Source of the DNA: Eledone cirrhosa
Taxonomy: Eukaryota
Direction: 5' to 3'
NCBI GenBank assembly: GCA_964016885.1
Contig: OZ024740.1
Coordinates: 18,786,001 to 18,850,000, forward strand
Length of the DNA: 64,000 nt
Shown: one piece after another, positions 14,469 through 58,594 of the stretch
How the letters are laid out: the number at the start of each line of letters is the position of its first letter
How positions within the stretch are numbered: position 1 is the first letter of the stretch
Made by a program: the position numbers and the translations under genes
The notes under the pieces: model-generated
Databases searched by the model: none
What the model saw: the letters and a program-made list of their open reading frames with translations, nothing else
Told to the model about the DNA's origin: nothing

Positions 14469-14770
14469 TAACCCTGCGATGGACTGGCATCTTGTCCAGG
14501 GGGAAATCTTGTACTCTCAGTCGCTTATTGCCACAGGAACCAGGATAAGACTTGTCTGATGAGTCTCCAGGATCGAGACAGACTTAAACCCTGAGATGGA
14601 CAGGTGTCCTGTCCAGGGGAGTAGTCATGTACTCTCAGTTACTTAACACCACAGAAACCAGGATAAGACTGGTCTGATGAGCTTCCAGGCTCGAGACAGA
14701 CTTTAACCCTGAGATGGATTGGTGTCCTGTCCAGGGGTGTCTTGTACTCTCAGTTACTTCAGGCCACGGA
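14469..14770. repeat. About 118-bp tandem repeat x2.5, probably from a SINE central/3' domain
   Basis: Three starts aaccctg(c/a)gatgga...tgtccagggg. Confidence 0.8.
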
Positions 14771-27309: not shown

Positions 27310-30300
27310 GTGTATCTGTTGTACCAGGAATAAACTGGGGTCTGTGGTGTAGCTGTTGTACCAGGAATAACCTGGTGTCTGTGGTGTAGCTGTTGTACCA
27401 GGAATAGTCTGGGGTCTGTGGTGTAGCTGTTGTACCAGGAATAACCTGGTGTCTGTGGTGTAGCTGTTGTACCAGGAATAAACTGGGGTCTGTGGTGTAG
27501 CTGTTGTACCAGGAATAAACTGGGGTCTGTGGTGTAGCTGTTGTACCAGGAATAGCCTGGTACCTGTGGTGTAGCTGTTGTACCAGGAATAGCCTGGGGT
27601 CTGTGGTGTAGCTGTTGTACCAGGAATAACCTGGGGTCTGTGGTGTAGCTGTTGTACCAGGAATAACCTGGGGACTGTGGTGTAGCTGTTGTACCAGGAA
27701 TAACCTGGGGTCTGTGGTGTAGCTGTTGTACCAGGAATAACCTGGGGTCTGTGGTGTAGCTGTTGTACCAGGAATAACCTGGGGTCTGTGGTGTAGCTGT
27801 TGTACCAGGAATAGTCTGGGGACTGTGGTGTAGCTGTTGTACCAGGAATAGCCTGGGGACTGTGGTGTAGCTGTTGTACCAGGAATAGTCTGGGGTCTGT
27901 GGTGTAGCTGTTGTACCAGGAATAACCTGGTGTCTGTGGTGTAGCTGTTGTACCAGGAATAGTCTGGGGTCTGTGGTGTAGCTGTTGTACCAGGAATAGT
28001 CTGGGGTCTGTGGTGTAGCTGTTGTACCAGGAATAGCCTGGGGTCTGTGGTGTAGCTGTTGTACCAGGAATAGCCTGGGGTCTGTGGTGTAGCTGTTGTA
28101 CCAGGAATAGTCTGGGGTCTGTGGTGTAGCTGTTGTACCAGGAATAACCTGGTGTCTGTGGTGTAGCTGTTGTACCAGGAATAGTCTGGGGTCTGTGGTG
28201 TAGCTGTTGTACCAGGAATAGTCTGGGGTCTGTGGTGTAGCTGTTGTACCAGGAATAACCTGGTGTCTGTGGTGTAGCTGTTGTACCAGGAATAGTCTGG
28301 GGTCTGTGGTGTAGCTGTTGTACCAGGAATAAGCTGGTGTCTGTGGTGTAGCTGTTGTACCAGGAATAAGCTGGTGTCTGTGGTGTAGCTGTTGTACCAG
28401 GAATAACCTGGGGTCTGTGGTGTAGCTGTTGTACCAGGAATAGCCTGGGGTCTGTGGTGTAGCTGTTGTACCAGGAATAGTCTGGGGTCTGTGGTGTAGC
28501 TGTTGTACCAGGAATAACCTGGTGTCTGTGGTGTAGCTGTTGTACCAGGAATAGTCTGGGGTCTGTGGTGTAGCTGTTGTACCAGGAATAAGCTGGTGTC
28601 TGTGGTGTAGCTGTTGTACCAGGAATAAGCTGGTGTCTGTGGTGTAGCTGTTGTACCAGGAATAACCTGGGGTCTGTGGTGTAGCTGTTGTACCAGGAAT
28701 AGTCTGGGGTCTGTGGTGTAGCTGTTGTACCAGGAATAAGCTGGTGTCTGTGGTGTAGCTGTTGTACCAGGAATAACCTGGGGTCTGTGGTGTAGCTGTT
28801 GTACCAGGAATAACCTGGGGTCTGTGGTGTAGCTGTTGTACCAGGAATAACCTGGGGTCTGTGGTGTAGCTGTTGTACCAGGAATAACCTGGGGTCTGTG
28901 GTGTAGCTGTTGTACCAGGAATAGTCTGGGGTCTGTGGTGTAGCTGTTGTACCAGGAATAAGCTGGTGTCTGTGGTGTAGCTGTTGTACCAGGAATAAGC
29001 TGGTGTCTGTGGTGTAGCTGTTGTACCAGGAATAACCTGGGGTCTGTGGTGTAGCTGTTGTACCAGGAATAACCTGGTGTCTGTGGTGTAGCTGTTGTAC
29101 CAGGAATAGTCTGGGGTCTGTGGTGTAGCTGTTGTACCAGGAATAGTCTGGGGTCTGTGGTGTAGCTGTTGTACCAGGAATAGTCTGGGGTCTGTGGTGT
29201 AGCTGTTGTACCAGGAATAGTCTGGGGTCTGTGGTGTAGCTGTTGTACCAGGAATAGTCTGGGGTCTGTGGTGTAGCTGTTGTACCAGGAATAGTCTGGG
29301 GTCTGTGGTGTAGCTGTTGTACCAGGAATAGTCTGGGGTCTGTGGTGTAGCTGTTGTACCAGGAATAAGCTGGTGTCTGTGGTGTAGCTGTTGTACCAGG
29401 AATAGTCTGGGGTCTGTGGTGTAGCTGTTGTACCAGGAATAACCTGGGGTCTGTGGTGTAGCTGTTGTACCAGGAATAACCTGGTGTCTGTGGTGTAGCT
29501 GTTGTACCAGGAATAACCTGGGGACTGTGGTGTAGCTGTTGTACCAGGAATAACCTGGGGTCTGTGGTGTAGCTGTTGTACCAGGAATAGTCTGGGGACT
29601 GTGGTGTAGCTGTTGTACCAGGAATAGCCTGGGATCTGTGGTGTAGCTGTTGTACCAGGAATAACCTGGGGTCTGTGGTGTAGCTGTTGTACCAGGAATA
29701 GTCTGGTGTCTGTGGTGTAGCTGTTGTACCAGGAATAACCTGGGGTCTGTGGTGTAGCTGTTGTACCAGGAATAGTCTGGTGTCTGTGGTGTAGCTGTTG
29801 TACCAGGAATAGTCTGGGGTCTGTGGTGTAGCTGTTGTACCAGGAATAGTCTGGGGTCTGTGGTGTAGCTGTTGTACCAGGAATAACCTGGGGTCTGTGG
29901 TGTAGCTGTTGTACCAGGAATAACCTGGGGACTGTGGTGTAGCTGTTGTACCAGGAATAGCCTGGGGTCTGTGGTGTAGCTGTTGTACCAGGAATAGTCT
30001 GGTGTCTGTGGTGTAGCTGTTGTACCAGGAATAGTCTGGGGTCTGTGGTGTAGCTGTTGTACCAGGAATAGTCTGGGGTCTGTGGTGTAGCTGTTGTACC
30101 AGGAATAACCTGGTGTCTGTGGTGTAGCTGTTGTACCAGGAATAACCTGGGGACTGTGGTGTAGCTGTTGTACCAGGAATAGCCTGGGGTCTGTGGTGTA
30201 GCTGTTGTACCAGGAATAACCTGGGGTCTGTGGTGTAGCTGTTGTACCAGGAATAACCTGGGGTCTGTGGTGTAGCTGTTGTACCAGGAATAGTCTGGGG

Positions 30301-33300
30301 TCTGTGGTGTAGCTGTTGTACCAGGAATAGTCTGGTGTCTGTGGTGTAGCTGTTGTACCAGGAATAGTCTGGTGTCTGTGGTGTAGCTGTTGTACCAGGA
30401 ATAGTCTGGGGTCTGTGGTGTAGCTGTTGTACCAGGAATAGTCTGGGGTCTGTGGTGTAGCTGTTGTACCAGGAATAGTCTGGGGTCTGTGGTGTAGCTG
30501 TTGTACCAGGAATAACCTGGGGTCTGTGGTGTAGCTGTTGTACCAGGAATAGTCTGGTGTCTGTGGTGTAGCTGTTGTACCAGGAATAGTCTGGGGTCTG
30601 TGGTGTAGCTGTTGTACCAGGAATAGTCTGGGGTCTGTGGTGTAGCTGTTGTACCAGGAATAACCTGGTGTCTGTGGTGTAGCTGTTGTACCAGGAATAA
30701 CCTGGGGACTGTGGTGTAGCTGTTGTACCAGGAATAGCCTGGGGTCTGTGGTGTAGCTGTTGTACCGGGAATAGTCTGGGGACTGTGGTGTAGCTGTTGT
30801 ACCAGGAATAGTCTGGGGTCTGTGGTGTAGCTGTTGTACCAGGAATAGTCTGGGGACTGTGGTGTAGCTGTTGTACCAGGAATAACCTGGGGTCTGTGGT
30901 GTAGCTGTTGTACCAGGAATAGTCTGGGGTCTGTGGTGTAGCTGTTGTACCAGGAATAACCTGGGGTCTGTGGTGTAGCTGTTGTACCAGGAATAGTCTG
31001 GGGTCTGTGGTGTAGCTGTTGTACCAGGAATAACCTGGGGTCTGTGGTGTAGCTGTTGTACCAGGAATAACGTGAGGTCTGTGGTGTAGCTGTTGTACCA
31101 GGAATAACCTGGGGACTGTGGTGTAGCTGTTGTACCAGGAATAACCTGGGGTCTGTGGTGTAGCTGTTGTACCGGGAATAGTCTGGGGACTGTGGTGTAG
31201 CTGTTGTACCAGGAATAGTCTGGGGTCTGTGGTGTAGCTGTTGTACCAGGAATAACCTGGGGTCTGTGGTGTAGCTGTTGTACCAGGAATAACCTGGGGT
31301 CTGTGGTGTAGCTGTTGTACCAGGAATAACGTGAGGTCTGTGGTGTAGCTGTTGTACCAGGAATAACCTGGGGACTGTGGTGTAGCTGTTGTACCAGGAA
31401 TAACCTGGGGTCTGTGGTGTAGCTGTTGTACCAGGAATAACCTGGGGTCTGTGGTGTAGCTGTTGTACCAGGAATAGTCTGGGGTCTGTGGTGTAGCTGT
31501 TGTACCAGGAATAGTCTGGGGTCTGTGGTGTAGCTGTTGTACCAGGAATAGCCTGGGGTCTGTGGTGTAGCTGTTGTACCAGGAATAACGTGAGGTCTGT
31601 GGTGTAGCTGTTGTACCAGGAATAGTCTGGGGTCTGTGGTGTAGCTGTTGTACCAGGAATAACCTGGGATCTGTGGTGTAGCTGTTGTACCAGGAATAGT
31701 CTGGGGACTGTGGTGTAGCTGTTGTACCAGGAATAACCTGGGGTCTGTGGTGTAGCTGTTGTACCAGGAATAACCTGGGGTCTGTGGTGTAGCTGTTGTA
31801 CCAGGAATAGCCTGGGGTCTGTGGTGTAGCTGTTGTACCAGGAATAGTCTGGGGTCTGTGGTGTAGCTGTTGTACCAGGAATAACCTGGGGTCTGTGGTG
31901 TAGCTGTTGTACCAGGAATAGCCTGGGGTCTGTGGTGTAGCTGTTGTACCAGGAATAACCTGGGGTCTGTGGTGTAGCTGTTGTACCAGGAATAACCTGG
32001 GGTCTGTGGTGTAGCTGTTGTACCAGGAATAGTCTGGGGACTGTGGTGTAGCTGTTGTACCAGGAATAACCTGGGATCTGTGGTGTAGCTGTTGTACCAG
32101 GAATAACCTGGGGTCTGTGGTGTAGCTGTTGTACCAGGAATAGTCTGGGGACTGTGGTGTAGCTGTTGTACCAGGAATAGTCTGGGGTCTGTGGTGTAGC
32201 TGTTGTACCAGGAATAACCTGGGGTCTGTGGTGTAGCTGTTGTACCAGGAATAACCTGGTGTCTGTGGTGTAGCTGTTGTACCAGGAATAACCTGGTGTC
32301 TGTGGTGTAGCTGTTGTACCAGGAATAGTCTGGGGTCTGTGGTGTAGCTGTTGTACCAGGAATAACCTGGGATCTGTGGTGTAGCTGTTGTACCAGGAAT
32401 AGTCTGGGGTCTGTGGTGTAGCTGTTGTACCAGGAATAACCTGGGGTCTGTGGTGTAGCTGTTGTACCAGGAATAACCTGGTGTCTGTGGTGTAGCTGTT
32501 GTACCAGGAATAACCTGGTGTCTGTGGTGTAGCTGTTGTACCAGGAATAGTCTGGGGACTGTGGTGTAGCTGTTGTACCAGGAATAACCTGGGGTCTGTG
32601 GTGTAGCTGTTGTACCAGGAATAGCCTGGGGACTGTGGTGTAGCTGTTGTACCAGGAATAACCTGGGGTCTGTGGTGTAGCTGTTGTACCAGGAATAGTC
32701 TGGGGTCTGTGGTGTAGCTGTTGTACCAGGAATAGTCTGGGGTCTGTGGTGTAGCTGTTGTACCAGGAATAGTCTGGGGTCTGTGGTGTAGCTGTTGTAC
32801 CAGGAATAGCCTGGGGTCTGTGGTGTAGCTGTTGTACCAGGAATAACCTGGGGTCTGTGGTGTATCTGTTGTACCAGGAATAGTCTGGGGTCTGTGGTGT
32901 AGCTGTTGTACCAGGAATAGTCTGGGGTCTGTGGTGTAGCTGTTGTACCAGGAATAGTCTGGGGTCTGTGGTGTAGCTGTTGTACCAGGAATAGTCTGGG
33001 GTCTGTGGTGTAGCTGTTGTACCAGGAATAACCTGGTGTCTGTGGTGTAGCTGTTGTACCAGGAATAACCTGGTGTCTGTGGTGTAGCTGTTGTACCAGG
33101 AATAACCTGGGGTCTGTGGTGTAGCTGTTGTACCAGGAATAACCTGGTGTCTGTGGTGTAGCTGTTGTACCAGGAATAACCTGGTGTCTGTGGTGTAGCT
33201 GTTGTACCAGGAATAACCTGGGGTCTGTGGTGTAGCTGTTGTACCAGGAATAACCTGGGGTCTGTGGTGTAGCTGTTGTACCAGGAATAACCTGGGGTCT

Positions 33301-36300
33301 GTGGTGTAGCTGTTGTACCAGGAATAACCTGGGGTCTGTGGTGTAGCTGTTGTACCAGGAATAACCTGGTGTCTGTGGTGTAGCTGTTGTACCAGGAATA
33401 ACCTGGTGTCTGTGGTGTAGCTGTTGTACCAGGAATAACCTGGGGTCTGTGGTGTAGCTGTTGTACCAGGAATAACCTGGTGTCTGTGGTGTAGCTGTTG
33501 TACCAGGAATAACCTGGTGTCTGTGGTGTAGCTGTTGTACCAGGAATAACCTGGGGTCTGTGGTGTAGCTGTTGTACCAGGAATAGTCTGGAGTCTGTGG
33601 TGTAGCTGTTGTACCAGGAATAGCCTGGGGTCTGTGGTGTAGCTGTTGTACCAGGAATAACCTGGGGTCTGTGGTGTAGCTGTTGTACCAGGAATAACCT
33701 GGGGTCTGTGGTGTAGCTGTTGTACCAGGAATAACCTGGGGTCTGTGGTGTAGCTGTTGTACCAGGAATAACCTGGGGTCTGTGGTGTAGCTGTTGTACC
33801 AGGAATAACCTGGTGTCTGTGGTGTAGCTGTTGTACCAGGAATAACCTGGTGTCTGTGGTGTAGCTGTTGTACCAGGAATAACCTGGGGTCTGTGGTGTA
33901 GCTGTTGTACCAGGAATAACCTGGGGTCTGTGGTGTAGCTGTTGTACCAGGAATAACCTGGGGTCTGTGGTGTAGCTGTTGTACCAGGAATAACCTGGGG
34001 TCTGTGGTGTAGCTGTTGTACCAGGAATAACCTGGGGTCTGTGGTGTAGCTGTTGTACCAGGAATAGTCTGGTGTCTGTGGTGTAGCTGTTGTACCAGGA
34101 ATAGTCTGGTGTCTGTGGTGTAGCTGTTGTACCAGGAATAACCTGGTGTCTGTGGTGTAGCTGTTGTACCAGGAATAGTCTGGGGTCTGTGGTGTAGCTG
34201 TTGTACCAGGAATAACCTGGTGTCTGTGGTGTAGCTGTTGTACCAGAAATAGTCTGGGGTCTGTGGTGTAGCTGTTGTACCAGGAATAGTCTGGGGTCTG
34301 TGGTGTAGCTGTTGTACCAGGAATAGTCTGGGGTCTGTGGTGTAGCTGTTGTACCAGGAATAGCCTGGGGTCTGTGGTGTAGCTGTTGTACCAGGAATAA
34401 CCTGGTGTCTGTGGTGTAGCTGTTGTACCAGGAATAGTCTGGGGTCTGTGGTGTAGCTGTTGTACCAGGAATAACCTGGGGTCTGTGGTGTAGCTGTTGT
34501 ACCAGGAATAACCTGGGGTCTGTGGTGTAGCTGTTGTACCAGGAATAGCCTGGGGTCTGTGGTGTAGCTGTTGTACCAGGAATGACCTGGGGTCTGTGGT
34601 GTAGCTGTTGTACCAGGAATAGTCTGGGGTCTGTGGTGTAGCTGTTGTACCAGGAATAGTCTGGGGTCTGTGGTGTAGCTGTTGTACCAGGAATAACCTG
34701 GGGTCTGTGGTGTAGCTGTTGTACCAGGAATGACCTGGGGTCTGTGGTGTAGCTGTTGTACCAGGAATAGTCTGGGGACTGTGGTGTAGCTGTTGTACCA
34801 GGAATAACCTGGTGTCTGTGGTGTAGCTGTTGTACCAGGAATGACCTGGGGTCTGTGGTGTAGCTGTTGTACCAGGAATAACCTGGGGTCTGTGGTGTAG
34901 CTGTTGTACCAGGAATGACCTGGGGTCTGTGGTGTAGCTGTTGTACCAGGAATAACCTGGGGTCTGTGGTGTAGCTGTTGTACCAGGAATAACCTGGGGT
35001 CTGTGGTGTAGCTGTTGTACCAGGAATGACCTGGGGTCTGTGGTGTAGCTGTTGTACCAGGAATAACCTGGGGTCTGTGGTGTAGCTGTTGTACCAGGAA
35101 TAACCTGGGGTCTGTGGTGTAGCTGTTGTACCAGGAATGACCTGGGGTCTGTGGTGTAGCTGTTGTACCAGGAATAACCTGGGGTCTGTGGTGTAGCTGT
35201 TGTACCAGGAATAACCTGGGGTCTGTGGTGTAGCTGTTGTACCAGGAATAACCTGGGGTCTGTGGTGTAGCTGTTGTACCAGGAATAGTCTGGGGTCTGT
35301 GGTGTAGCTGTTGTACCAGGAATAGTCTGGGGTCTGTGGTGTATCTGTTGTACCAGGAATAGTCTGGGGTCTGTGGTGTATCTGTTGTACCAGGAATAGT
35401 CTGGGGTCTGTGGTGTAGCTGTTGTACCAGGAATAGTCTGGGGTCTGTGGTGTAGCTGTTGTACCAGGAATAGTCTGGGGTCTGTGGTGTATCTGTTGTA
35501 CCAGGAATGACCTGGGGTCTGTGGTGTAGCTGTTGTACCAGGAATGACCTGGGGTCTGTGGTGTAGCTGTTGTACCAGGAATGACCTGGGGTCTGTCGTG
35601 TAGCTGTTGTACCAGGAATGACCTGGGGTCTGTGGTGTAGCTGTTGTACCAGGAATGACCTGGGGTCTGTGGTGTAGCTGTTGTACCAGGAATGACCTGG
35701 GGTCTGTGGTGTAGCTGTTGTACCAGGAATAGTCTGGGGTCTGTGGTGTAGCTGTTGTACCAGGAATAGTCTGGGGTCTGTGGTGTAGCTGTTGTACCAG
35801 GAATAGTCTGGGGTCTGTGGTGTAGCTGTTGTACCAGGAATAGTCTGGGGTCTGTGGTGTAGCTGTTGTACCAGGAATAACCTGGGGTCTGTGGTGTAGC
35901 TGTTGTACCAGGAATAGTCTGGGGACTGTGGTGTATCTGTTGTACCAGGAATGACCTGGGGTCTGTGGTGTAGCTGTTGTACCAGGAATGACCTGGGGTC
36001 TGTGGTGTAGCTGTTGTACCAGGAATAGTCTGGGGTCTGTGGTGTATCTGTTGTACCAGGAATGACCTGGGGTCTGTGGTGTAGCTGTTGTACCAGGAAT
36101 AGTCTGGGGTCTGTGGTGTATCTGTTGTACCAGGAATGACCTGGGGTCTGTGGTGTAGCTGTTGTACCAGGAATGACCTGGGGTCTGTGGTGTAGCTGTT
36201 GTACCAGGAATGACCTGGGGTCTGTGGTGTAGCTGTTGTACCAGGAATAACCTGGTGTCTGTGGTGTAGCTGTTGTACCAGGAATAGTCTGGTGTCTGTG

Positions 36301-39300
36301 GTGTAGCTGTTGTACCAGGAATGACCTGGGGTCTGTGGTGTAGCTGTTGTACCAGGAATGACCTGGGGTCTGTGGTGTAGCTGTTGTACCAGGAATGACC
36401 TGGGGTCTGTGGTGTAGCTGTTGTACCAGGAATAACCTGGGGTCTGTGGTGTAGCTGTTGTACCAGGAATGACCTGGGGTCTGTGGTGTAGCTGTTGTAC
36501 CAGGAATGACCTGGGGTCTGTGGTGTAGCTGTTGTACCAGGAATAACCTGGTGTCTGTGGTGTAGCTGTTGTACCAGGAATAGTCTGGGGTCTGTGGTGT
36601 AGCTGTTGTACCAGGAATAGTCTGGGGTCTGTGGTGTAGCTGTTGTACCAGGAATAACCTGGGGTCTGTGGTGTAGCTGTTGTACCAGGAATGACCTGGG
36701 GTCTGTGGTGTAGCTGTTGTACCAGGAATAACCTGGTGTCTGTGGTGTAGCTGTTGTACCAGGAATAGTCTGGTGTCTGTGGTGTAGCTGTTGTACCAGG
36801 AATGACCTGGGGTCTGTGGTGTAGCTGTTGTACCAGGAATGACCTGGGGTCTGTGGTGTAGCTGTTGTACCAGGAATGACCTGGGGTCTGTGGTGTAGCT
36901 GTTGTACCAGGAATAACCTGGGGTCTGTGGTGTAGCTGTTGTACCAGGAATGACCTGGGGTCTGTGGTGTAGCTGTTGTACCAGGAATGACCTGGGGTCT
37001 GTGGTGTAGCTGTTGTACCAGGAATAACCTGGTGTCTGTGGTGTAGCTGTTGTACCAGGAATGACCTGGGGTCTGTGGTGTAGCTGTTGTACCAGGAATA
37101 ACCTGGTGTCTGTGGTGTAGCTGTTGTACCAGGAATAGTCTGGTGTCTGTGGTGTAGCTGTTGTACCAGGAATAGCCTGGGGTCTGTGGTGTAGCTGTTG
37201 TACCAGGAATAACCTGGGGTCTGTGGTGTAGCTGTTGTACCAGGAATAACCTGGGGTCTGTGGTGTAGCTGTTGTACCAGGAATAGTCTGGGGTCTGTGG
37301 TGTAGCTGTTGTACCAGGAATAGCCTGGGGTCTGTGGTGTAGCTGTTGTACCAGGAATAACCTGGGGTCTGTGGTGTAGCTGTTGTACCAGGAATAGTCT
37401 GGTGTCTGTGGTGTAGCTGTTGTACCAGGAATAGCCTGGGGTCTGTGGTGTAGCTGTTGTACCAGGAATAACCTGGGGTCTGTGGTGTAGCTGTTGTACC
37501 AGGAATAGTCTGGTGTCTGTGGTGTAGCTGTTGTACCAGGAATAGCCTGGGGTCTGTGGTGTAGCTGTTGTACCAGGAATAACCTGGGGTCTGTGGTGTA
37601 GCTGTTGTACCAGGAATAGCCTGGGGTCTGTGGTGTAGCTGTTGTACCAGGAATAACCTGGGGTCTGTGGTGTAGCTGTTGTACCAGGAATAACCTGGGG
37701 TCTGTGGTGTAGCTGTTGTACCAGGAATAACCTGGGGTCTGTGGTGTAGCTGTTGTACCAGGAATAACCTGGGGTCTGTGGTGTAGCTGTTGTACCAGGA
37801 ATAACCTGGTGTCTGTGGTGTAGCTGTTGTACCAGGAATAGTCTGGGGTCTGTGGTGTAGCTGTTGTACCAGGAATAACCTGGGGTCTGTGGTGTAGCTG
37901 TTGTACCAGGAATAGTCTGGGGTCTGTGGTGTAGCTGTTGTACCAGGAATAACCTGGGGTCTGTGGTGTAGCTGTTGTACCAGGAATAGTCTGGGGTCTG
38001 TGGTGTAGCTGTTGTACCAGGAATAGCCTGGGGTCTGTGGTGTAGCTGTTGTACCAGGAATAGTCTGGGGTCTGTGGTGTAGCTGTTGTACCAGGAATAG
38101 TCTGGGGTCTGTGGTGTAGCTGTTGTACCAGGAATAACCTGGGGTCTGTGGTGTAGCTGTTGTACCAGGAATAGTCTGGGGTCTGTGGTGTAGCTGTTGT
38201 ACCAGGAATAACCTGGGGTCTGTGGTGTAGCTGTTGTACCAGGAATAGTCTGGGGTCTGTGGTGTAGCTGTTGTACCAGGAATAACCTGGGGTCTGTGGT
38301 GTAGCTGTTGTACCAGGAATAGTCTGGGGTCTGTGGTGTAGCTGTTGTACCAGGAATAGTCTGGGGTCTGTGGTGTAGCTGTTGTACCAGGAATAGTCTG
38401 GGGTCTGTGGTGTAGCTGTTGTACCAGGAATAGCCTGGGGTCTGTGGTGTAGCTGTTGTACCAGGAATAGTCTGGGGTCTGTGGTGTAGCTGTTGTACCA
38501 GGAATAGTCTGGGGTCTGTGGTGTAGCTGTTGTACCAGGAATAGTCTGGGGTCTGTGGTGTAGCTGTTGTACCAGGAATAGTCTGGGGTCTGTGGTGTAG
38601 CTGTTGTACCAGGAATAGTCTGGGGTCTGTGGTGTATCTGTTGTACCAGGAATAACCTGGGGTCTGTGGTGTAGCTGTTGTACCAGGAATAACCTGGTGT
38701 CTGTGGTGTAGCTGTTGTACCAGGAATAACCTGGTGTCTGTGGTGTAGCTGTTGTACCAGGAATAACCTGGTGTCTGTGGTGTAGCTGTTGTACCAGGAA
38801 TAGTCTGGGGTCTGTGGTGTAGCTGTTGTACCAGGAATAACCTGGTGTCTGTGGTGTAGCTGTTGTACCAGGAATAGTCTGGGGTCTGTGGTGTAGCTGT
38901 TGTACCAGGAATAACCTGGTGTCTGTGGTGTAGCTGTTGTACCAGGAATAACCTGGTGTCTGTGGTGTAGCTGTTGTACCAGGAATAACCTGGGGTCTGT
39001 GGTGTAGCTGTTGTACCAGGAATAGTCTGGGGACTGTGGTGTAGCTGTTGTACCAGGAATAACCTGGGGTCTGTGGTGTAGCTGTTGTACCAGGAATAAC
39101 CTGGTGTCTGTGGTGTAGCTGTTGTACCAGGAATAACCTGGGGTCTGTGGTGTAGCTGTTGTACCAGGAATAGTCTGGGGTCTGTGGTGTAGCTGTTGTA
39201 CCAGGAATAACCTGGGGTCTGTGGTGTAGCTGTTGTACCAGGAATAACCTGGTGTCTGTGGTGTAGCTGTTGTACCAGGAATAGCCTGGGGTCTGTGGTG

Positions 39301-42300
39301 TAGCTGTTGTACCAGGAATAGTCTGGGGTCTGTGGTGTAGCTGTTGTACCAGGAATAACCTGGTGTCTGTGGTGTAGCTGTTGTACCAGGAATAACCTGG
39401 GGTCTGTGGTGTAGCTGTTGTACCAGGAATAACCTGGTGTCTGTGGTGTAGCTGTTGTACCAGGAATAACCTGGGGTCTGTGGTGTAGCTGTTGTACCAG
39501 GAATAGTCTGGGGTCTGTGGTGTAGCTGTTGTACCAGGAATAACCTGGGGTCTGTGGTGTAGCTGTTGTACCAGGAATAGTCTGGGGTCTGTGGTGTAGC
39601 TGTTGTACCAGGAATAACCTGGGGTCTGTGGTGTAGCTGTTGTACCAGGAATAGTCTGGGGACTGTGGTGTAGCTGTTGTACCAGGAATAGTCTGGGGTC
39701 TGTGGTGTAGCTGTTGTACCAGGAATAGTCTGGGGTCTGTGGTGTAGCTGTTGTACCAGGAATAACCTGGGGTCTGTGGTGTAGCTGTTGTACCAGGAAT
39801 AGTCTGGGGACTGTGGTGTAGCTGTTGTACCAGGAATAGTCTGGGGACTGTGGTGTAGCTGTTGTACCAGGAATAGTCTGGGGACTGTGGTGTAGCTGTT
39901 GTACCAGGAATAACCTGGTGTCTGTGGTGTAGCTGTTGTACCAGGAATAGTCTGGGGACTGTGGTGTAGCTGTTGTACCAGGAATAGTCTGGGGACTGTG
40001 GTGTAGCTGTTGTACCAGGAATAGTCTGGGGTCTGTGGTGTAGCTGTTGTACCAGGAATAACCTGGGGTCTGTGGTGTAGCTGTTGTACCAGGAATAACC
40101 TGGTGTCTGTGGTGTAGCTGTTGTACCAGGAATAACCTGGTGTCTGTGGTGTAGCTGTTGTACCAGGAATAGCCTGGGGTCTGTGGTGTAGCTGTTGTAC
40201 CAGGAATAGTCTGGGGTCTGTGGTGTAGCTGTTGTACCAGGAATAGTCTGGGGTCTGTGGTGTAGCTGTTGTACCAGGAATAACCTGGGGTCTGTGGTGT
40301 AGCTGTTGTACCAGGAATAACCTGGGGTCTGTGGTGTAGCTGTTGTACCAGGAATAACCTGGTGTCTGTGGTGTAGCTGTTGTACCAGGAATGACCTGGG
40401 GTCTGTGGTGTAGCTGTTGTACTAGGAATAACCTGGGGTCTGTGGTGTAGCTGTTGTACCAGGAATAACCTGGGGTCTGTGGTGTAGCTGTTGTACCGGG
40501 AATAGTCTGGGGACTGTGGTGTAGCTGTTGTACCAGGAATAGCCTGGGGTCTGTGGTGTAGCTGTTGTACCAGGAATAGCCTGGGGTCTGTGGTGTAGCT
40601 GTTGTACCAGGAATAACCTGGGGTCTGTGGTGTAGCTGTTGTACCAGGAATGACCTGGGGTCTGTGGTGTAGCTGTTGTACCGGGAATAGTCTGGGGACT
40701 GTGGTGTAGCTGTTGTACCAGGAATAACCTGGGGTCTGTGGTGTAGCTGTTGTACCAGGAATGACCTGGGGTCTGTGGTGTAGCTGTTGTACTAGGAATA
40801 ACCTGGGGTCTGTGGTGTAGCTGTTGTACCAGGAATAACCTGGGGTCTGTGGTGTAGCTGTTGTACCGGGAATAGTCTGGGGACTGTGGTGTAGCTGTTG
40901 TACCAGGAATAGCCTGGGGTCTGTGGTGTAGCTGTTGTACCAGGAATAGCCTGGGGTCTGTGGTGTAGCTGTTGTACCAGGAATAACCTGGGGTCTGTGG
41001 TGTAGCTGTTGTACCGGGAATAGTCTGGGGACTGTGGTGTAGCTGTTGTACCAGGAATAGCCTGGGGTCTGTGGTGTAGCTGTTGTACCAGGAATAGTCT
41101 GGGGTCTGTGGTGTAGCTGTTGTACCAGGAATAACCTGGTGTCTGTGGTGTAGCTGTTGTACCAGGAATAACCTGGGGTCTGTGGTGTAGCTGTTGTACC
41201 AGGAATAACCTGGTGTCTGTGGTGTAGCTGTTGTACCAGGAATAGCCTGGGGTCTGTGGTGTAGCTGTTGTACCAGGAATAACCTGGTGTCTGTGGTGTA
41301 GCTGTTGTACCAGGAATAGCCTGGGGTCTGTGGTGTAGCTGTTGTACCAGGAATAACCTGGTGTCTGTGGTGTAGCTGTTGTACCAGGAATAGCCTGGGG
41401 TCTGTGGTGTAGCTGTTGTACCAGGAATAACCTGGTGTCTGTGGTGTAGCTGTTGTACCAGGAATAGCCTGGGGTCTGTGGTGTAGCTGTTGTACCAGGA
41501 ATAACCTGGGGTCTGTGGTGTAGCTGTTGTACCAGGAATAGCCTGGGGTCTGTGGTGTAGCTGTTGTACCAGGAATAGTCTGGGGTCTGTGGTGTAGCTG
41601 TTGTACCAGGAATAACCTGGGGTCTGTGGTGTAGCTGTTGTACCAGGAATAGCCTGGGGTCTGTGGTGTAGCTGTTGTACCAGGAATAGTCTGGGGTCTG
41701 TGGTGTAGCTGTTGTACCAGGAATAGTCTGGGGTCTGTGGTGTAGCTGTTGTACCAGGAATAACCTGGTGTCTGTGGTGTAGCTGTTGTACCAGGAATAA
41801 CCTGGGGTCTGTGGTGTAGCTGTTGTACCAGGAATAACCTGGTGTCTGTGGTGTAGCTGTTGTACCAGGAATAACCTGGGGTCTGTGGTGTAGCTGTTGT
41901 ACCAGGAATAACCTGGTGTCTGTGGTGTAGCTGTTGTACCAGGAATAACCTGGTGTCTGTGGTGTAGCTGTTGTACCAGGAATAGCCTGGGGTCTGTGGT
42001 GTAGCTGTTGTACCAGGAATAGTCTGGGGTCTGTGGTGTAGCTGTTGTACCAGGAATAGTCTGGGGTCTGTGGTGTAGCTGTTGTACCAGGAATAACCTG
42101 GGGTCTGTGGTGTAGCTGTTGTACCAGGAATAACCTGGTGTCTGTGGTGTAGCTGTTGTACCAGGAATAACCTGGGGTCTGTGGTGTAGCTGTTGTACCA
42201 GGAATAACCTGGTGTCTGTGGTGTAGCTGTTGTACCAGGAATAACCTGGGGTCTGTGGTGTAGCTGTTGTACCAGGAATAGTCTGGGGTCTGTGGTGTAG

Positions 42301-45300
42301 CTGTTGTACCAGGAATAACCTGGTGTCTGTGGTGTAGCTGTTGTACCAGGAATAACCTGGTGTCTGTGGTGTAGCTGTTGTACCAGGAATAACCTGGTGT
42401 CTGTGGTGTAGCTGTTGTACCAGGAATAGTCTGGGGACTGTGGTGTAGCTGTTGTACCAGGAATAGCCTGGGGTCTGTGGTGTAGCTGTTGTACCAGGAA
42501 TAGTCTGGGGTCTGTGGTGTAGCTGTTGTACCAGGAATAGTCTGGGGTCTGTGGTGTAGCTGTTGTACCAGGAATAACCTGGGGTCTGTGGTATAGCTGT
42601 TGTACCAGGAATAACCTGGGGTCTGTGGTGTAGCTGTTGTACCAGGAATAGTCTGGGGACTGTGGTGTAGCTGTTGTACCAGGAATAACCTGGGGTCTGT
42701 GGTGTAGCTGTTGTACCAGGAATAACCTGGGGTCTGTGGTGTAGCTGTTGTACCAGGAATAACCTGGGGTCTGTGGTGTAGCTGTTGTACCAGGAATAGT
42801 CTGGGGTCTGTGGTGTAGCTGTTGTACCAGGAATAACCTGGGGTCTGTGGTGTAGCTGTTGTACCAGGAATAGTTTGGGGTCTGTGGTGTAGCTGTTGTA
42901 CCAGGAATAGTCTGGGGTCTGTGGTGTAGCTGTTGTACCAGGAATAGTCTGGGGTCTGTGGTGTAGCTGTTGTACCAGGAATAGTTTGGGGTCTGTGGTG
43001 TAGCTGTTGTACCAGGAATAACCTGGGGTCTGTGGTATAGCTGTTGTACCAGGAATAACCTGGGGTCTGTGGTGTAGCTGTTGTACCAGGAATAACCTGG
43101 TGTCTGTGGTGTAGCTGTTGTACCAGGAATAACCTGGTGTCTGTGGTGTAGCTGTTGTACCAGGAATAGCCTGGGGTCTGTGGTGTAGCTGTTGTACCAG
43201 GAATAACCTGGGGACTGTGGTGTAGCTGTTGTACCAGGAATAGTCTGGGGTCTGTGGTGTAGCTGTTGTACCAGGAATAGTTTGGGGTCTGTGGTGTAGC
43301 TGTTGTACCAGGAATAGTCTGGGGTCTGTGGTGTATCTGTTGTACCAGGAATAACCTGGGGTCTGTGGTGTAGCTGTTGTACCAGGAATAACCTGGGGTC
43401 TGTGGTGTAGCTGTTGTACTAGGAATAACCTGGGGTCTGTGGTGTAGCTGTTGTACCAGGAATAGTCTCGGGTCTGTGGTGTAGCTGTTGTACCAGGAAT
43501 AGTCTGGGGTCTGTGGTGTAGCTGTTGTACCAGGAATAGTCTGGGGTCTGTGGTGTAGCTGTTGTACCAGGAATAACCTGGGGTCTGTGGTGTAGCTGTT
43601 GTACCAGGAATAGTCTGGGGTCTGTGGTGTATCTGTTGTACCAGGAATAACCTGGGGTCTGTGGTGTAGCTGTTGTACCAGGAATAACCTGGGGTCTGTG
43701 GTGTAGCTGTTGTACCAGGAATAGTCTCGGGTCTGTGGTGTAGCTGTTGTACCAGGAATAGTCTGGGGTCTGTGGTGTAGCTGTTGTACCAGGAATAACC
43801 TGGGGTCTGTGGTGTAGCTGTTGTACCAGGAATAGTCTCGGGTCTGTGGTGTAGCTGTTGTACCAGGAATAGTCTGGGGTCTGTGGTGTAGCTGTTGTAC
43901 CAGGAATAGTCTGGGGTCTGTGGTGTAGCTGTTGTACCAGGAATAACCTGGGGTCTGTGGTGTAGCTGTTGTACCAGGAATAGTCTGGGGTCTGTGGTGT
44001 AGCTGTTGTACCAGGAATAACCTGGGGTCTGTGGTGTAGCTGTTGTACCAGGAATAGTCTGGGGTCTGTGGTGTAGCTGTTGTACCAGGAATAACCTGGG
44101 GTCTGTGGTGTAGCTGTTGTACCAGGAATAGTCTGGGGTCTGTGGTGTAGCTGTTGTACCAGGAATAACCTGGGGTCTGTGGTGTAGCTGTTGTACCAGG
44201 AATAGTCTGGGGTCTGTGGTGTAGCTGTTGTACCAGGAATAACCTGGGGTCTGTGGTGTAGCTGTTGTACCAGGAATAGTCTGGGGTCTGTGGTGTAGCT
44301 GTTGTACCAGGAATAGTCTGGGGTCTGTGGTGTAGCTGTTGTACCAGGAATAGTCTCGGGTCTGTGGTGTAGCTGTTGTACCAGGAATAGTCTGGGGTCT
44401 GTGGTGTAGCTGTTGTACCAGGAATAGTCTCGGGTCTGTGGTGTATCTGTTGTACCAGGAATAACCTGGGGTCTGTGGTGTAGCTGTTGTACCAGGAATA
44501 ACCTGGGGTCTGTGGTGTAGCTGTTGTACCAGGAATAGTCTGGGGTCTGTGGTGTAGCTGTTGTACCAGGAATAGTCTGGGGTCTGTGGTGTAGCTGTTG
44601 TACCAGGAATAACCTGGGGTCTGTGGTGTAGCTGTTGTACCAGGAATAGTTTGGGGTCTGTGGTGTATCTGTTGTACCAGGAATAACCTGGGGTCTGTGG
44701 TGTAGCTGTTGTACCAGGAATAACCTGGGGTCTGTGGTGTAGCTGTTGTACCAGGAATAGTCTGGGGACTGTGGTGTAGCTGTTGTACCAGGAATAGTCT
44801 GGGGTCTGTGGTGTAGCTGTTGTACCAGGAATAACCTGGGGTCTGTGGTGTAGCTGTTGTACCAGGAATAACCTGGGGACTGTGGTGTAGCTGTTGTACC
44901 AGGAATAGTCTGGGGTCTGTGGTGTAGCTGTTGTACCAGGAATAACCTGGGGTCTGTGGTGTAGCTGTTGTACCAAGAATAACCTGGGGTCTGTGGTGTA
45001 GCTGTTGTACCAGGAATAGTCTGGGGTCTGTGGTGTAGCTGTTGTACCAGGAATAGTCTGGGGACTGTGGTGTAGCTGTTGTACCAGGAATAGTCTGGGG
45101 TCTGTGGTGTAGCTGTTGTACCAGGAATAACCTGGGGTCTGTGGTGTAGCTGTTGTACCAGGAATAGTCTGGGGTCTGTGGTGTAGCTGTTGTACCAAGA
45201 ATAACCTGGGGTCTGTGGTGTAGCTGTTGTACCAGGAATAGTCTGGGGTCTGTGGTGTAGCTGTTGTACCAGGAATAGTCTGGGGACTGTGGTGTAGCTG

Positions 45301-45701
45301 TTGTACCAGGAATAGTCTGGGGTCTGTGGTGTAGCTGTTGTACCAGGAATAGTCTGGGGTCTGTGGTGTAGCTGTTGTACCAGGAATAGTCTGGGGTCTG
45401 TGGTGTAGCTGTTGTACCAGGAATAACCTGGTGTCTGTGGTGTAGCTGTTGTACCAGGAATAACCTGGGGTCTGTGGTGTAGCTGTTGTACCAAGAATAA
45501 CCTGGGGTCTGTGGTGTAGCTGTTGTACCAAGAATAACCTGGGGTCTGTGGTGTAGCTGTTGTACCAGGAATAACCTGGGGTCTGTGGTGTAGCTGTTGT
45601 ACCAAGAATAACCTGGGGACTGTGGTGTAGCTGTTGTACCAGGAATAGTCTGGGGTCTGTGGTGTAGCTGTTGTACCAGGAATAACCTGGGGTCTGTGGT
45701 G
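27310..45701. repeat. Giant intronic minisatellite, 37-bp unit x 497
   Basis: Consensus GTGTAGCTGTTGTACCAGGAATA(A/G)(C/T)CTGG(G/T)G(T/A)CTGTG. 27310 + 497x37 = 45699 lands on a unit start. The 37-aa periodicity of the ORF track equals three units. Confidence 0.99.
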
Positions 45702-46179: not shown

Positions 46180-46341
46180 TATTCATTTTATTAAGGCTAA
46201 ATAGTGAGTCTTATTCCTCCGGTGTTTCGCTTGTGTATCACAGGGTCGTCAGACAAAATGTTCTTTTCTGATGACCCTGTGGTAAATAGGCGAAACCCCG
46301 GAGTAACAAAACTCACGATTTACCCTTATTAACATGAATAT
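46180..46341. repeat. Imperfect fold-back element with two partly decayed hammerhead motifs
   Basis: Plus arm CUGAUGA-C-CCUGU...AUAGG-C-GAAAC-CCCGGA-GUA^ACAAAA. Minus arm UUUUGU-CUGACGA...GAAAC-ACCGGA-GGA. Confidence 0.65.
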
Positions 46342-48840: not shown

Positions 48841-48967
48841 GTTATTCCGGGTTGAATCGGAGGTAACCACAGTAAGTAAGGTACTCAATACATAGCAGAG
48901 TATAACAGTTTTAATATAGATGAGATTCTACAGGACTAGAACTGTTTCATTCATTAGAAATCATCAG

Positions 48968-49016
48968 GATTCCTGATGATTTCTAATGAATGAAACAGTT
49001 CTAGTCCTGTAGAATC
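48968..49016 (+). ncRNA. Type I hammerhead ribozyme inside a perfect palindrome (48914-49026)
   Basis: GAUUC-CUGAUGA-U-UUC(UAAU)GAA-U-GAAAC-AG(UUCUAGUC)CU-GUA^GAAUC. The 56-bp arms surround a 1-nt centre at 48970. Confidence 0.8.
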
Positions 49017-53239: not shown

Positions 53240-53568
53240 GTATATCCTAAACGGACGGCAGTCAAAGTCATTTCTTTGCATGGGTTTTTGTCCATTCTAA
53301 AAAGTTAAAATGATAAAGTATTACTACTATATAACTTACATCTATTGTTGTAACACCATTGAAATGCACAAGTTTCACCAATTCACTATTATGCACTAAT
53401 CATCTCAAATGCATTCATGATTTACTAGCTTTGTCATTAAGCCAGTTGCCTCAACTAGATTGCAATTATACTCAAAAGAACTTTAAAATGTCAATCACTT
53501 GTCAGTAATTCACTATGATCATTTAATTATTAGATAGTTGTTGCTTGCATTGCCTTAAAAAATAGTAG

Positions 53569-54629
53569 ACCAGATAGAAAAATGCGTACAGCAAAAAAAA
53601 GTATTATTGTTGGAATATAAACCTTTAAAAATACAGGACAAGAAACTAAAATAAAACTTTAAAAGAATAGGACAAGAAACTAAGATAAAACTTTAAAAGA
53701 ATAGGACAAGAAACTAAGATAAAACTTTAAAGAATTGGACAAGAAATAACAAATTTTACAATAATATTAGTGGCAAAATGTTTTTATTCGTTTCCTGTGC
53801 TATGCCCCAGTATCTTCTTGATTAGTGCATAATAATTGTCATGCTCTCATTGTGCGTTGCCGCTGAGCGGTTGGTTCTGGTTGGGGTTGGTTGGCTGAGC
53901 AGTTCTGCTCCGTCAGAATGACCATTGCAAGAAGAATTGGCCGATGCAGCTGCAGGTCTCCTCCAAGAATGCACTTCTGGTCCCGCAACACCAGACGAAG
54001 ATAGAGAAGACGACCGGGACAAGATGTCGACTCTGACCACCGACTACGGCACCTCCCTCAACCACCGGTCCTCCCTCCCTCTGTCCCGTCATCCCTCCAG
54101 TCCTCCTGCTCCCCCTTCCTGTACCAGAAAGCTGTGGCACGCATTTATCTGGACTGCCCGACTTGAACTCAAGGACAAGATGCAAGGAGAAGATGGACGG
54201 GTTGGTCAAGATCAAGGATGAGCGGGACGACAAGACCGTCCGCTGCTGCTCAAGATCTGTGCTCATGGGCCCATGGGTCCATTCACATTATGCATGACAC
54301 ATGAGGCGTGTCGCCGAATGATGAAATAGGGGTATGGTTATGGCCCAATTGGTGTTCAAACCAGGATCAAATGATCCCCCAGTCTGACGACGACCTCTGA
54401 ATGTGGAACCCAGAGCCTATGAACGTGGAACTCGATTTTTTACCAATAAATATTTTGCAACTAATATTATTGTAAAATTTTTTATTTCTTGTCCAATTCT
54501 TTAAAGTGTTATCTTAGTTTCTTGTCCTATTCTTTTAAAGTTTTATTTTAGTTTCTTGTCCTGTATTTTTAAAGGTTTATATTCCAACAATATTACTTTT
54601 TTTTTGCTGTACGCATTTTTCTATCTGGT
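53569..54629. repeat. Inverted-repeat element: AT-rich arms (53569-53787 / 54445-54629) around a GC-richer core of about 650 bp
   Basis: The arms are reverse complements containing 31-bp subrepeats, with one extra subrepeat in the left arm. Confidence 0.88.
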
Positions 54630-54752
54630 ATATATATCTGAAATATCATTTCATTTTTTCCGTTTATCGTTTTCGGTGCACCCGGCCGATTAACACACTC
54701 GATATGCAAATTGGGCTACTCAGCCGTTAATATGCATAAGGTAAGTATATAC

Positions 54753-54839
54753 GTTCAACAATCTGGCAGGAAGGTATACGTTGCTGACGATAGCTAACAA
54801 GCTTGAAACTAGTACAGCGTTCCTTTGTCAGTGTTGAAC
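54753..54839 (+). ncRNA. Type I hammerhead ribozyme, copy 1 (predicted cleavage after 54814)
   Basis: CGUUG-CUGACGA-U-AGCU(AACA)AGCU-U-GAAAC-UA-GUA^CAGCG. Stem I is extended by GGAA/UUCC, CUGGCA/UGUCAG and GUUCAACA/UGUUGAAC. Confidence 0.9.
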
Positions 54840-55174
54840 AAACGAGCAACGGTGGTTGCTAGACACTACGGCTTAATACGGGATGTTTGTTTACAAACAC
54901 ACCGAGCATTATAATAAATGTTCGGTGAATCCATACGTGCATATATATATGTGTGCATGTATGTATATATATATATACATACTACTGTACGTCGGTATAC
55001 ATATATGTATGTACGTGTACATACTTATATTTAAGTAACAGCCGTACTAAGAGTGGGAAATGAAATATCGTTTCATTTTTTCCGTTTATCGTTTTCGGTG
55101 CACCCGGCCGATTAACCCACTCGATATGCAAATTGGGCTACTCAGCCGTTAATATGCATAAGGTAAGTATATAC

Positions 55175-55261
55175 GTTCAACAATCGGGCAGGAAGGTATA
55201 CGTTGCTGACGATAGCTAACAAGCTTGAAACTAGTACAGCGTTCCTTTGTCAGTGTTGAAC
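55175..55261 (+). ncRNA. Type I hammerhead ribozyme, copy 2 (cleavage after 55236)
   Basis: Same core and stems as copy 1, with one substitution in distal stem I. Confidence 0.9.
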
Positions 55262-55600
55262 AAACGAGCAACGGTGGTTGCTAGACACTACGGCTTAATA
55301 CGGGATGTTTGTTTACAAACACACCGAGCATTATAATAAATGTTCGGTGAATCCATACGTGCATATATATATGTGTGCATGTATGTATATATATATATAT
55401 ATACATACTACTGTACGTCGGTATACATATATGTATGTACGTGTACATACTTATATTTAAGTAACAGCCGTACTAAGAGTGGGAAATGAAATATCCTTTC
55501 ATTTTTTCCGTTTATCGTTTTCGGTGCACCCGGCCGATTAACCCACTCGATATGCAAATTGGGCTACTCAGCCGTTAATATGCATAAGGTAAGTATATAC

Positions 55601-55687
55601 GTTCAACAATCTGGCAGGAAGGTATACGTTGCTGACGATAGCTAACAAGCTTGAAACTAGTACAGCGTTCCTTTGTCAGTGTTGAAC
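55601..55687 (+). ncRNA. Type I hammerhead ribozyme, copy 3 (cleavage after 55662)
   Basis: Identical to copy 1. Confidence 0.9.
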
Positions 55688-55933
55688 AAACGAGCAACGG
55701 TGGTTGCTAGACACTACGGCTTAATACGGGATGTTTGTTTACAAACACACCGAGCATTATAATAAATGTTCGGTGAATCCATACGTGCATATATATATGT
55801 GTGCATGTATGTATATATATATATATACATACTACTGTACGTCGGTATACATATATGTATGTACGTGTACATACTTATATTTAAGTAACAGCCGTACTAA
55901 GAGTGGGAAATGAAATATCGTTTCATTTTTTCC

Positions 55934-56010
<77 letters not shown>

Positions 56011-56013
<3 letters not shown>

Positions 56014-58505: not shown

Positions 58506-58594
58506 ATACTCAAACAGTTTTTATTTGCTTACAATGTTTCATCCATCCCATTGGGTAGGAATCATCAGAGCTTAATAAACACAGTGCTGAGTAT
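58506..58594 (-). ncRNA. Type I hammerhead ribozyme
   Basis: GCU-CUGAUGA-U-UCC-UA-CCC(AAU)GGG-AU-GGA-U-GAAAC-AUU-GUA^AGC. Stem I is extended by UUUAUU/AAUAAA and AUACUCA/UGAGUAU. Confidence 0.8.

Follow-up and report, generated by a model that had tools for sequence, protein, structure and literature searches.

The trimeric locus and its family

The window, by which we mean the whole 64,000-nucleotide stretch of Eledone cirrhosa DNA that was analysed, contains on its plus strand three head-to-tail units of 422, 426 and 424 nt, which are 98-99% identical and are followed by a 28-nt partial unit and then by (TA)37. Unit 1 (54640..55061) forms the variable, 5'-truncated end of the insertion, unit 2 (55062..55487) serves as the reference for the q1-q426 numbering used below, and unit 3 (55488..55911) leads into the partial unit (55912..55939). 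The array is lodged in a (TA)n target, the left remnant of which (54630..54638) separates the truncated array from the end of an adjacent repeat, and the right part of which is the (TA)37 microsatellite (55937..56011). The units have a GC content of 38% and differ by four substitutions at three sites, every allele being private to one unit, as well as in (TA) length; no flanking DNA is repeated along with them. These observations confirm the near-identical tandem units described in the first-pass annotation. The window copy is a one-armed insertion of 3.07 units that ends at the site termed A below, and an inverted second arm is absent from this locus.

The (TA)n tract holding the window copy also borders another repeat, and 13 of the 14 other copies of this neighbour that were fetched end identically before passing into TA-rich or unrelated flanks. 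This abundant repeat (window 53560-54630; 1,101 candidates at a first look, the best of them 99% identical) has inverted ends, one of which stops at TA-rich DNA and the other of which runs on, and it may be another element of the Penelope-like (PLE) type rather than a DNA transposon. Elsewhere the window holds an 18.4-kb satellite (27310-45701) in which a 37-bp unit recurs about 497 times and which is strongly GC-skewed, with very long minus-strand frames free of stops, a 118-bp tandem of 2.5 copies (14470-14759) with a hammerhead-like CUGAUGA segment in its consensus, and hammerhead-like motifs of unrelated repeat families at about 46250-46310, 48940-49000 and 58530-58570, two of them as inverted pairs.

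The exact 34-nt hammerhead core of the unit occurs 1,875 times in the 3.0-Gb genome (controls 0), and leaving one loop position free raises this to 12,315 copies (reversed-pattern control 0), a multi-locus distribution that disposes of the simple local triplication which the first-pass annotation had named as a possible refutation of its own reading. Dispersed insertions of the 424-nt unit, which we designate family 1, number in the thousands. Long older arrays are also present (L146-L149, L070 and L038), which run from 6.5 to at least 10 kb, with 7-10 kb in view in L146-L149, and are heterogeneous and 89-94% identical to the reference unit; the element additionally builds satellite-like blocks. 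At one locus (L229:1515-6266) a ten-unit arm consists of a repeated heterodimer, a higher-order repeat, and this array expanded after insertion. Array length alone is therefore no proof of rolling. Such growth is conceivable for one or two of the three window units, but it is most improbable that one inserted unit gave rise to the trimer by local triplication or by satellite growth, given the thousands of dispersed insertions, the 36 of 125 complete arms that span two or more ribozymes, the lack of a derived allele common to the three window units and their unrepeated flanks.

The unit has no ORF over 60 aa, its region yielded no tRNA gene, and there is neither a unique internal region between repeats nor an LTR-type organisation; the ORF for RT and GIY-YIG endonuclease that marks an autonomous EN+ PLE is absent. 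With a type I hammerhead, a length of 422-426 nt and a longest ORF of 60 aa, the unit conforms, as far as sequence goes, to the non-coding tandem retrozyme first proposed for it. Related families were recognised as 1b (78% identical), 2 (60%), 2b and 3. Sister family 2 (L055:6120-7300, L151-L175) has units of 466 nt with about 60% identity to those of family 1, many near-identical young copies, a canonical G10.1-C11.1 pair, a GUU site and a 68-nt tail. An unrelated 310-nt tandem hammerhead family (L056:6300-7001 and L063) forms head-to-head arrays too. Among the titles and abstracts listed on octopus or cephalopod hammerheads, retrozymes and PLEs, none describes family 1; supplementary repeat lists, Repbase or Dfam could hold it.

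The hammerhead motif and its predicted fold

Each unit carries a type I hammerhead motif with a long interrupted stem I (54753..54839, 55175..55261 and 55601..55687, plus strand), the cores of which begin at 54784, 55206 and 55632. The core comprises CUGACGA, a 4-bp stem II with the loop AACA, and GAAAC-UA-GUA, and is intact in all three units; proximal stem I is 6 bp long and is extended by interrupted helices. Cleavage is predicted after 54814, 55236 and 55662, positions that agree with the earlier predictions and would release monomers of 422 and 426 nt. Stem II opens with a U10.1·U11.1 mismatch in place of the conserved G-C, a natural hammerhead variant (PMC3088659), and the "loop" of stem III is only 2 nt, so that a lone ribozyme would effectively have a 1-bp stem III. 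The Rfam search for hammerheads proposed in the first-pass annotation returned none in the units at the gathering threshold, where the score lay below every Rfam hammerhead model, and none among the 93 matches obtained at E<=10; miRNA-like matches were discarded as arising from the AT hairpin and falling far under their own thresholds. Of the complete hammerhead with minimal palindromic stem III that had been claimed, the intact core and the palindrome itself stand, while the stem II mismatch, the missing Rfam match and the effective 1-bp stem III call for amendment.

The predicted monomer fold (-147.6 kcal/mol, z -7.9) was matched in stability by 0 of 100 shuffles, and the same held after removal of the AT tract (z -5.4, 0/100). 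All five hairpins named in the first-pass annotation are present, as is a branched domain (55289..55472, plus strand) that encloses the AT-rich hairpin and is closed by a long-range stem between 55289-55295 and 55466-55472, a counterpart of which is seen by eye in the sister families. In the models a double hammerhead is 7.6 kcal/mol lower than two single ribozymes (-177.4 vs -169.8 kcal/mol), which bears out the suggestion that the palindromic stem III would suit double-hammerhead cleavage; the unconstrained fold (-183.4 kcal/mol) is predicted to beat both active forms and lies 6 kcal/mol below the double hammerhead. Dimer-dependent hammerhead cleavage leaves monomer circles intact (PMC4209133).

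Covariation was examined in nine aligned hammerheads from the family and its sister families. The catalytic core is invariant in them except at positions 7 and 17, and 92.6% of paired cells pair, against 30-44% in slid controls. Changes on both sides affect 14 of 30 helix pairs, among them four pairs in each of stems I and II as well as the stem III palindrome, where UA becomes AU, and 0 of 500 shuffles match this; as the sequences are related and partly motif-picked, the shuffle control is no probability, but a structure conserved across the sister families is still supported.

Insertion ends, target and the search for a coding partner

The ends were scored in a first set of 137 arms, 130 of which have the 3' end in view. 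Taking site A as q26-28 and site B as q376-402 (mostly q392-398), 61 of these 3' ends lie at A, 55 at B and 14 elsewhere, and 110 of the 116 ends at A or B adjoin (TA)n. Across the genome, exact junctions with (TA)n number 3,717 for A and 4,088 for B, and internal junctions at site A come to 4,447. Both sites have the form UUU then A and are 55 nt apart, and the intervening sequence constitutes a PLE-type tail with a terminal hairpin, which in the window (55883..55937, plus strand) runs from site B (after 55882) to site A (after 55937), where the insertion ends. The terminal 28-29-nt partial is the terminus fixed for the family and no variable end, and the multimers with variable start points that the first-pass annotation expected give way to arms of which 116 in 130 have their 3' end fixed at one of two sites.

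The same 137 arms include 42 head-to-head pairs, 33 with both ends scorable and nine cut or interrupted. In every one of the 33 an A end is matched with a B end; a single pair is a segmental duplicate, and the chance of such an outcome for the other 32 is about 2e-10. At 36 further loci, chosen by an A junction and scored by eye, 18 of 18 independent pairs were A+B and none was A+A, which brings the total to 50 of 50 independent head-to-head insertions scored. Sister family 2, from 26 loci, gave A+B in 15 of 15. Among coding elements, a young Hydra-like family with a 745-aa frame gave six A+B and one B+B in seven two-ended loci (ten examined), and a Neptune-like family four A+B, one A+A and one B+B (ten loci examined).

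Insertions lie in (TA)n, which would mask any target-site duplication, including one of more than 4 bp such as non-LTR retrozymes may have, and most arms are short (106 of 126 under two units). A tail at one end only, an inverted 5'-truncated arm and variable 5' ends are all present in the family. The two fixed 3' sites by (TA)n and their one-to-one pairing point to a Penelope-like enzyme acting through target-primed reverse transcription, and an insertion of PLE type is in our judgement very probable. Tandem near-identical units and scattered 5' ends might also arise by rolling reverse transcription of a circle from variable start points, independently of PLE machinery; the fixed 3' ends and the invariant A+B pairing largely refute this account, to which we attach hardly any probability. 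Twin priming on one linear RNA, the L1-type model, was considered and rejected, for arm A starts away from site B.

The 3.0-Gb genome contains many young Hydra-like and Neptune-like ORFs, among them frames of 745-808 aa that are intact in several young PLE families of the Hydra-like type (L131-L140, L261-L280). Pfam recognised 0 of 4 Hydra-like fragments, and the clade labels therefore rest on motifs read against the relevant passages of PMC8557442 rather than on a tree. Among 36 fetched Hydra-like and Neptune-like PLE loci blastn found no sequence common with the unit beyond co-inserted copies, and a GIY-YIG family search and Hydra-like protein searches gave no partner sharing sequence with it. 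Resemblance at the ends is confined to motifs of 10-11 nt, and the short likenesses noted to Hydra-A end A, to a Neptune-like end and to the U·U hammerhead of Nep-B may be fortuitous.

Neptune-like pseudo-LTRs (L072:2209-2241 with ten similar loci, and the L141 family) bear hammerhead variants with a U3-A8 core, which in the L072 family are combined with U10.1·U11.1 and a palindromic stem III of 2 bp, as in the 424-nt unit. At two loci a family-1 arm is joined to a coding PLE fragment without intervening (TA)n. At L049:3467 the fragment is Neptune-like and head-to-head with the arm; at L012:2121 it is Hydra-like and points the same way as the arm, and the junction shows an apparent short stretch of microhomology. 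Both junctions violate the A+B rule (A with A and B with B, respectively) and were rejected as evidence of a partner.

The units could in principle be pseudo-LTR stubs of a full coding PLE, that is, truncation debris rather than an independent element, as the tail, the inversion, the (TA)n target and the hammerhead are all PLE features (PMC8557442) and short arms predominate. We consider this improbable: beyond site A the unit enters its own next unit and no ORF, none of 32 solo arms has a shared coding 5' continuation, the ends of 16 plus 20 PLE-bearing loci are unmatched except by co-inserted copies, and the unit itself has no frame over 60 aa. Nor is any inspected copy joined to a coding body, in agreement with the earlier reading of the unit as a retrozyme; this check covers about 105 loci of the thousands in the family.

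Template, mechanism and relationship to known elements

Only 3 of 130 5' ends fall near the predicted cut (q170-185), against 4.9 expected, and their distribution does not depart from uniform (KS p=0.11); among 125 complete arms, one predicted cut site is spanned by 102 and at least two by 36. Scattered 5' ends and arms that span cut sites indicate that cut linear monomers are not the usual template, and, as the 5' ends do not gather at the cut site, either a circular RNA or a multimer left uncut would have been the template. On the same ground, template jumping from one cut monomer to the next was rejected as the main route.

Alleles within insertions bear on this choice. Alleles 97T and 272G are present in all nine pieces of both arms of L037, 364G is found in 4 of 4 pieces of L062, and L057 is nearly uniform over ten pieces; the sharing in L037 and L062 fits one monomer per insertion. 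L031 is a mosaic in which 37C marks 6 of the 7 units of the A arm and neither of the two in the B arm, and L060 and L033 switch subfamily haplotype inside an arm. Scored within arms, diagnostic alleles are uniform in 93 of 152 cases and mixed in 59, part of the latter being end-alignment noise and q125 sampling bias; the apparent recurrence of the q125 G allele was dismissed as an artefact of its presence in the query.

It is quite possible, if in our estimate somewhat short of an even chance, that the same element and the same PLE enzyme use a linear multimer that is read through from a source array and stays uncut, with a slow or protein-gated hammerhead and with circles, where formed at all, as by-products. 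In a PLE, mutation of the ribozyme leaves insertion normal and the enzyme mainly uses unprocessed RNA (PMC11167929), the anatomy of the ribozyme is weak (U·U, 1-bp stem III), mosaic arms exist (L031, L033, L060), and long source-like arrays are available (L146-L149). However, those arrays are heterogeneous, at 89-94% identity, whereas young insertions of 8-10 pieces are nearly uniform, and the rare alleles found in every unit of L037 and L062 require a single-unit bottleneck, which speaks against an uncut multimer, as do the compensatory changes that keep the hammerhead across families about 60% identical. Taken as a whole the copy haplotypes do not decide between the two templates. We place the circle slightly ahead, and, granted a PLE-type insertion, somewhat favour it as the usual template.

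With roughly even confidence, we propose that family 1 is a non-LTR retrozyme that borrows a Penelope-like reverse transcriptase/endonuclease, which would paste it into the genome with a predicted circular RNA as the template. Tandem copies would be transcribed, adjacent hammerheads would pair via the ACUAGU palindrome and excise monomers of about 424 nt, and a host ligase would close these into circles; a circle on its own, having a stem III of 1 bp, would presumably cleave itself poorly. The PLE protein would then nick both strands of a (TA)n tract; cDNA would start at A on one of them and at B on the other and run back from either start through zero to several units to a random stop, and the two 5' ends would be joined head-to-head. 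A more specific version, which we regard as speculative and rather unlikely, is that an asymmetric PLE dimer copies one RNA circle, its subunits priming 55 nt apart (at A and B, on opposite nicked strands) and rolling independently, with recognition of RNA shape and no sequence shared with the partner. If this were true, the one-A/one-B rule and the alleles common to every unit of both arms would be a genomic record of a circular RNA retrotransposition intermediate, and the asymmetric dimer would explain the tandem-plus-inverted insertions with a one-sided tail seen in PLEs.

The family appears to work like a non-autonomous PLE and to display every assessable sequence-level hallmark of non-LTR retrozymes. 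The retrozyme class is already known, and family 1 is likely an added member of the non-LTR retrozyme/non-autonomous PLE class. Like the metazoan non-LTR retrozymes (PMC7229834; 10.64898/2026.07.22.740005), it consists of non-coding tandem units in the 150-450-nt range with a GC content under 50% and one type I hammerhead each, dispersed as dimers to long arrays. Unlike them, it has the U10.1·U11.1 core variant, and its ends carry a PLE footprint (two fixed sites, tail, A+B inversion and (TA)n) unreported in the parts of those two papers that were compared. Circles have been shown for such retrozymes in other animals (PMC7229834), and cleavage as well as circles in coral, mussel and axolotl, whereas family 1 is known from sequence; of nine frog retrozyme dimers only one was cleaved (10.64898/2026.07.22.740005). 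The motif resembles the canonical metazoan type I hammerhead (PMC4209133, PMC3088659) in its 6-bp helix I, 4-bp helix II and a 1-2-bp palindromic helix III fit for dimeric cleavage, and differs from it in the U·U at 10.1-11.1 and in scoring under all Rfam models.

PLEs have been proposed as the mobiliser of retrozymes (PMC7229834; 10.64898/2026.07.22.740005), and the borrowing of PLE machinery by animal retrozymes was previously argued mainly from co-occurrence and common hammerheads; family 1 displays PLE end structure directly, at thousands of sites. PLE insertions include partial tandems and an inverted 5'-truncated copy, often with a 30-40-bp tail at one end only, and Hydra, Neptune and Naiad target (TA)n (PMC8557442). 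Family 1 shares with the EN+ Hydra and Neptune elements the one-sided tail, the inverted 5'-truncated copy, the partial tandems, the (TA)n target and the hammerhead, but it has no ORF, and its tail, at 55 nt, exceeds their 30-40. Chlamydomonas has non-autonomous PLEs with head-to-tail copies, for instance the Chlamys element MRC1 (PMC8557442); these generally share the 3' ends of their partners, whereas family 1 shares none with the autonomous families sampled.

A mechanistic parallel is the Anolis Poseidon element PAc, the protein of which cleaves AT-rich DNA on both strands, extends both of them and initiates reverse transcription at two internal positions bounding the tail, with ribozyme cleavage dispensable and uncut RNA the dominant substrate in vitro (PMC11167929). 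Sites A and B of family 1 fit these two initiation sites, and the AT-rich target and the cutting and extension of both strands are further likenesses. PAc is a coding element with its sites inside the start of the ORF, whereas family 1 is non-coding and offers, together with the young Hydra-like and Neptune-like ORFs of the genome, a compact 424-nt substrate for the question of a circular template. For PAc, moreover, no difference in start site was seen between strands, whereas the two arms of one family-1 insertion always use different sites. This strict pairing goes beyond what is reported in the relevant parts of PMC11167929, and the rule of one A and one B per two-armed insertion is testable in the in vitro PLE system.
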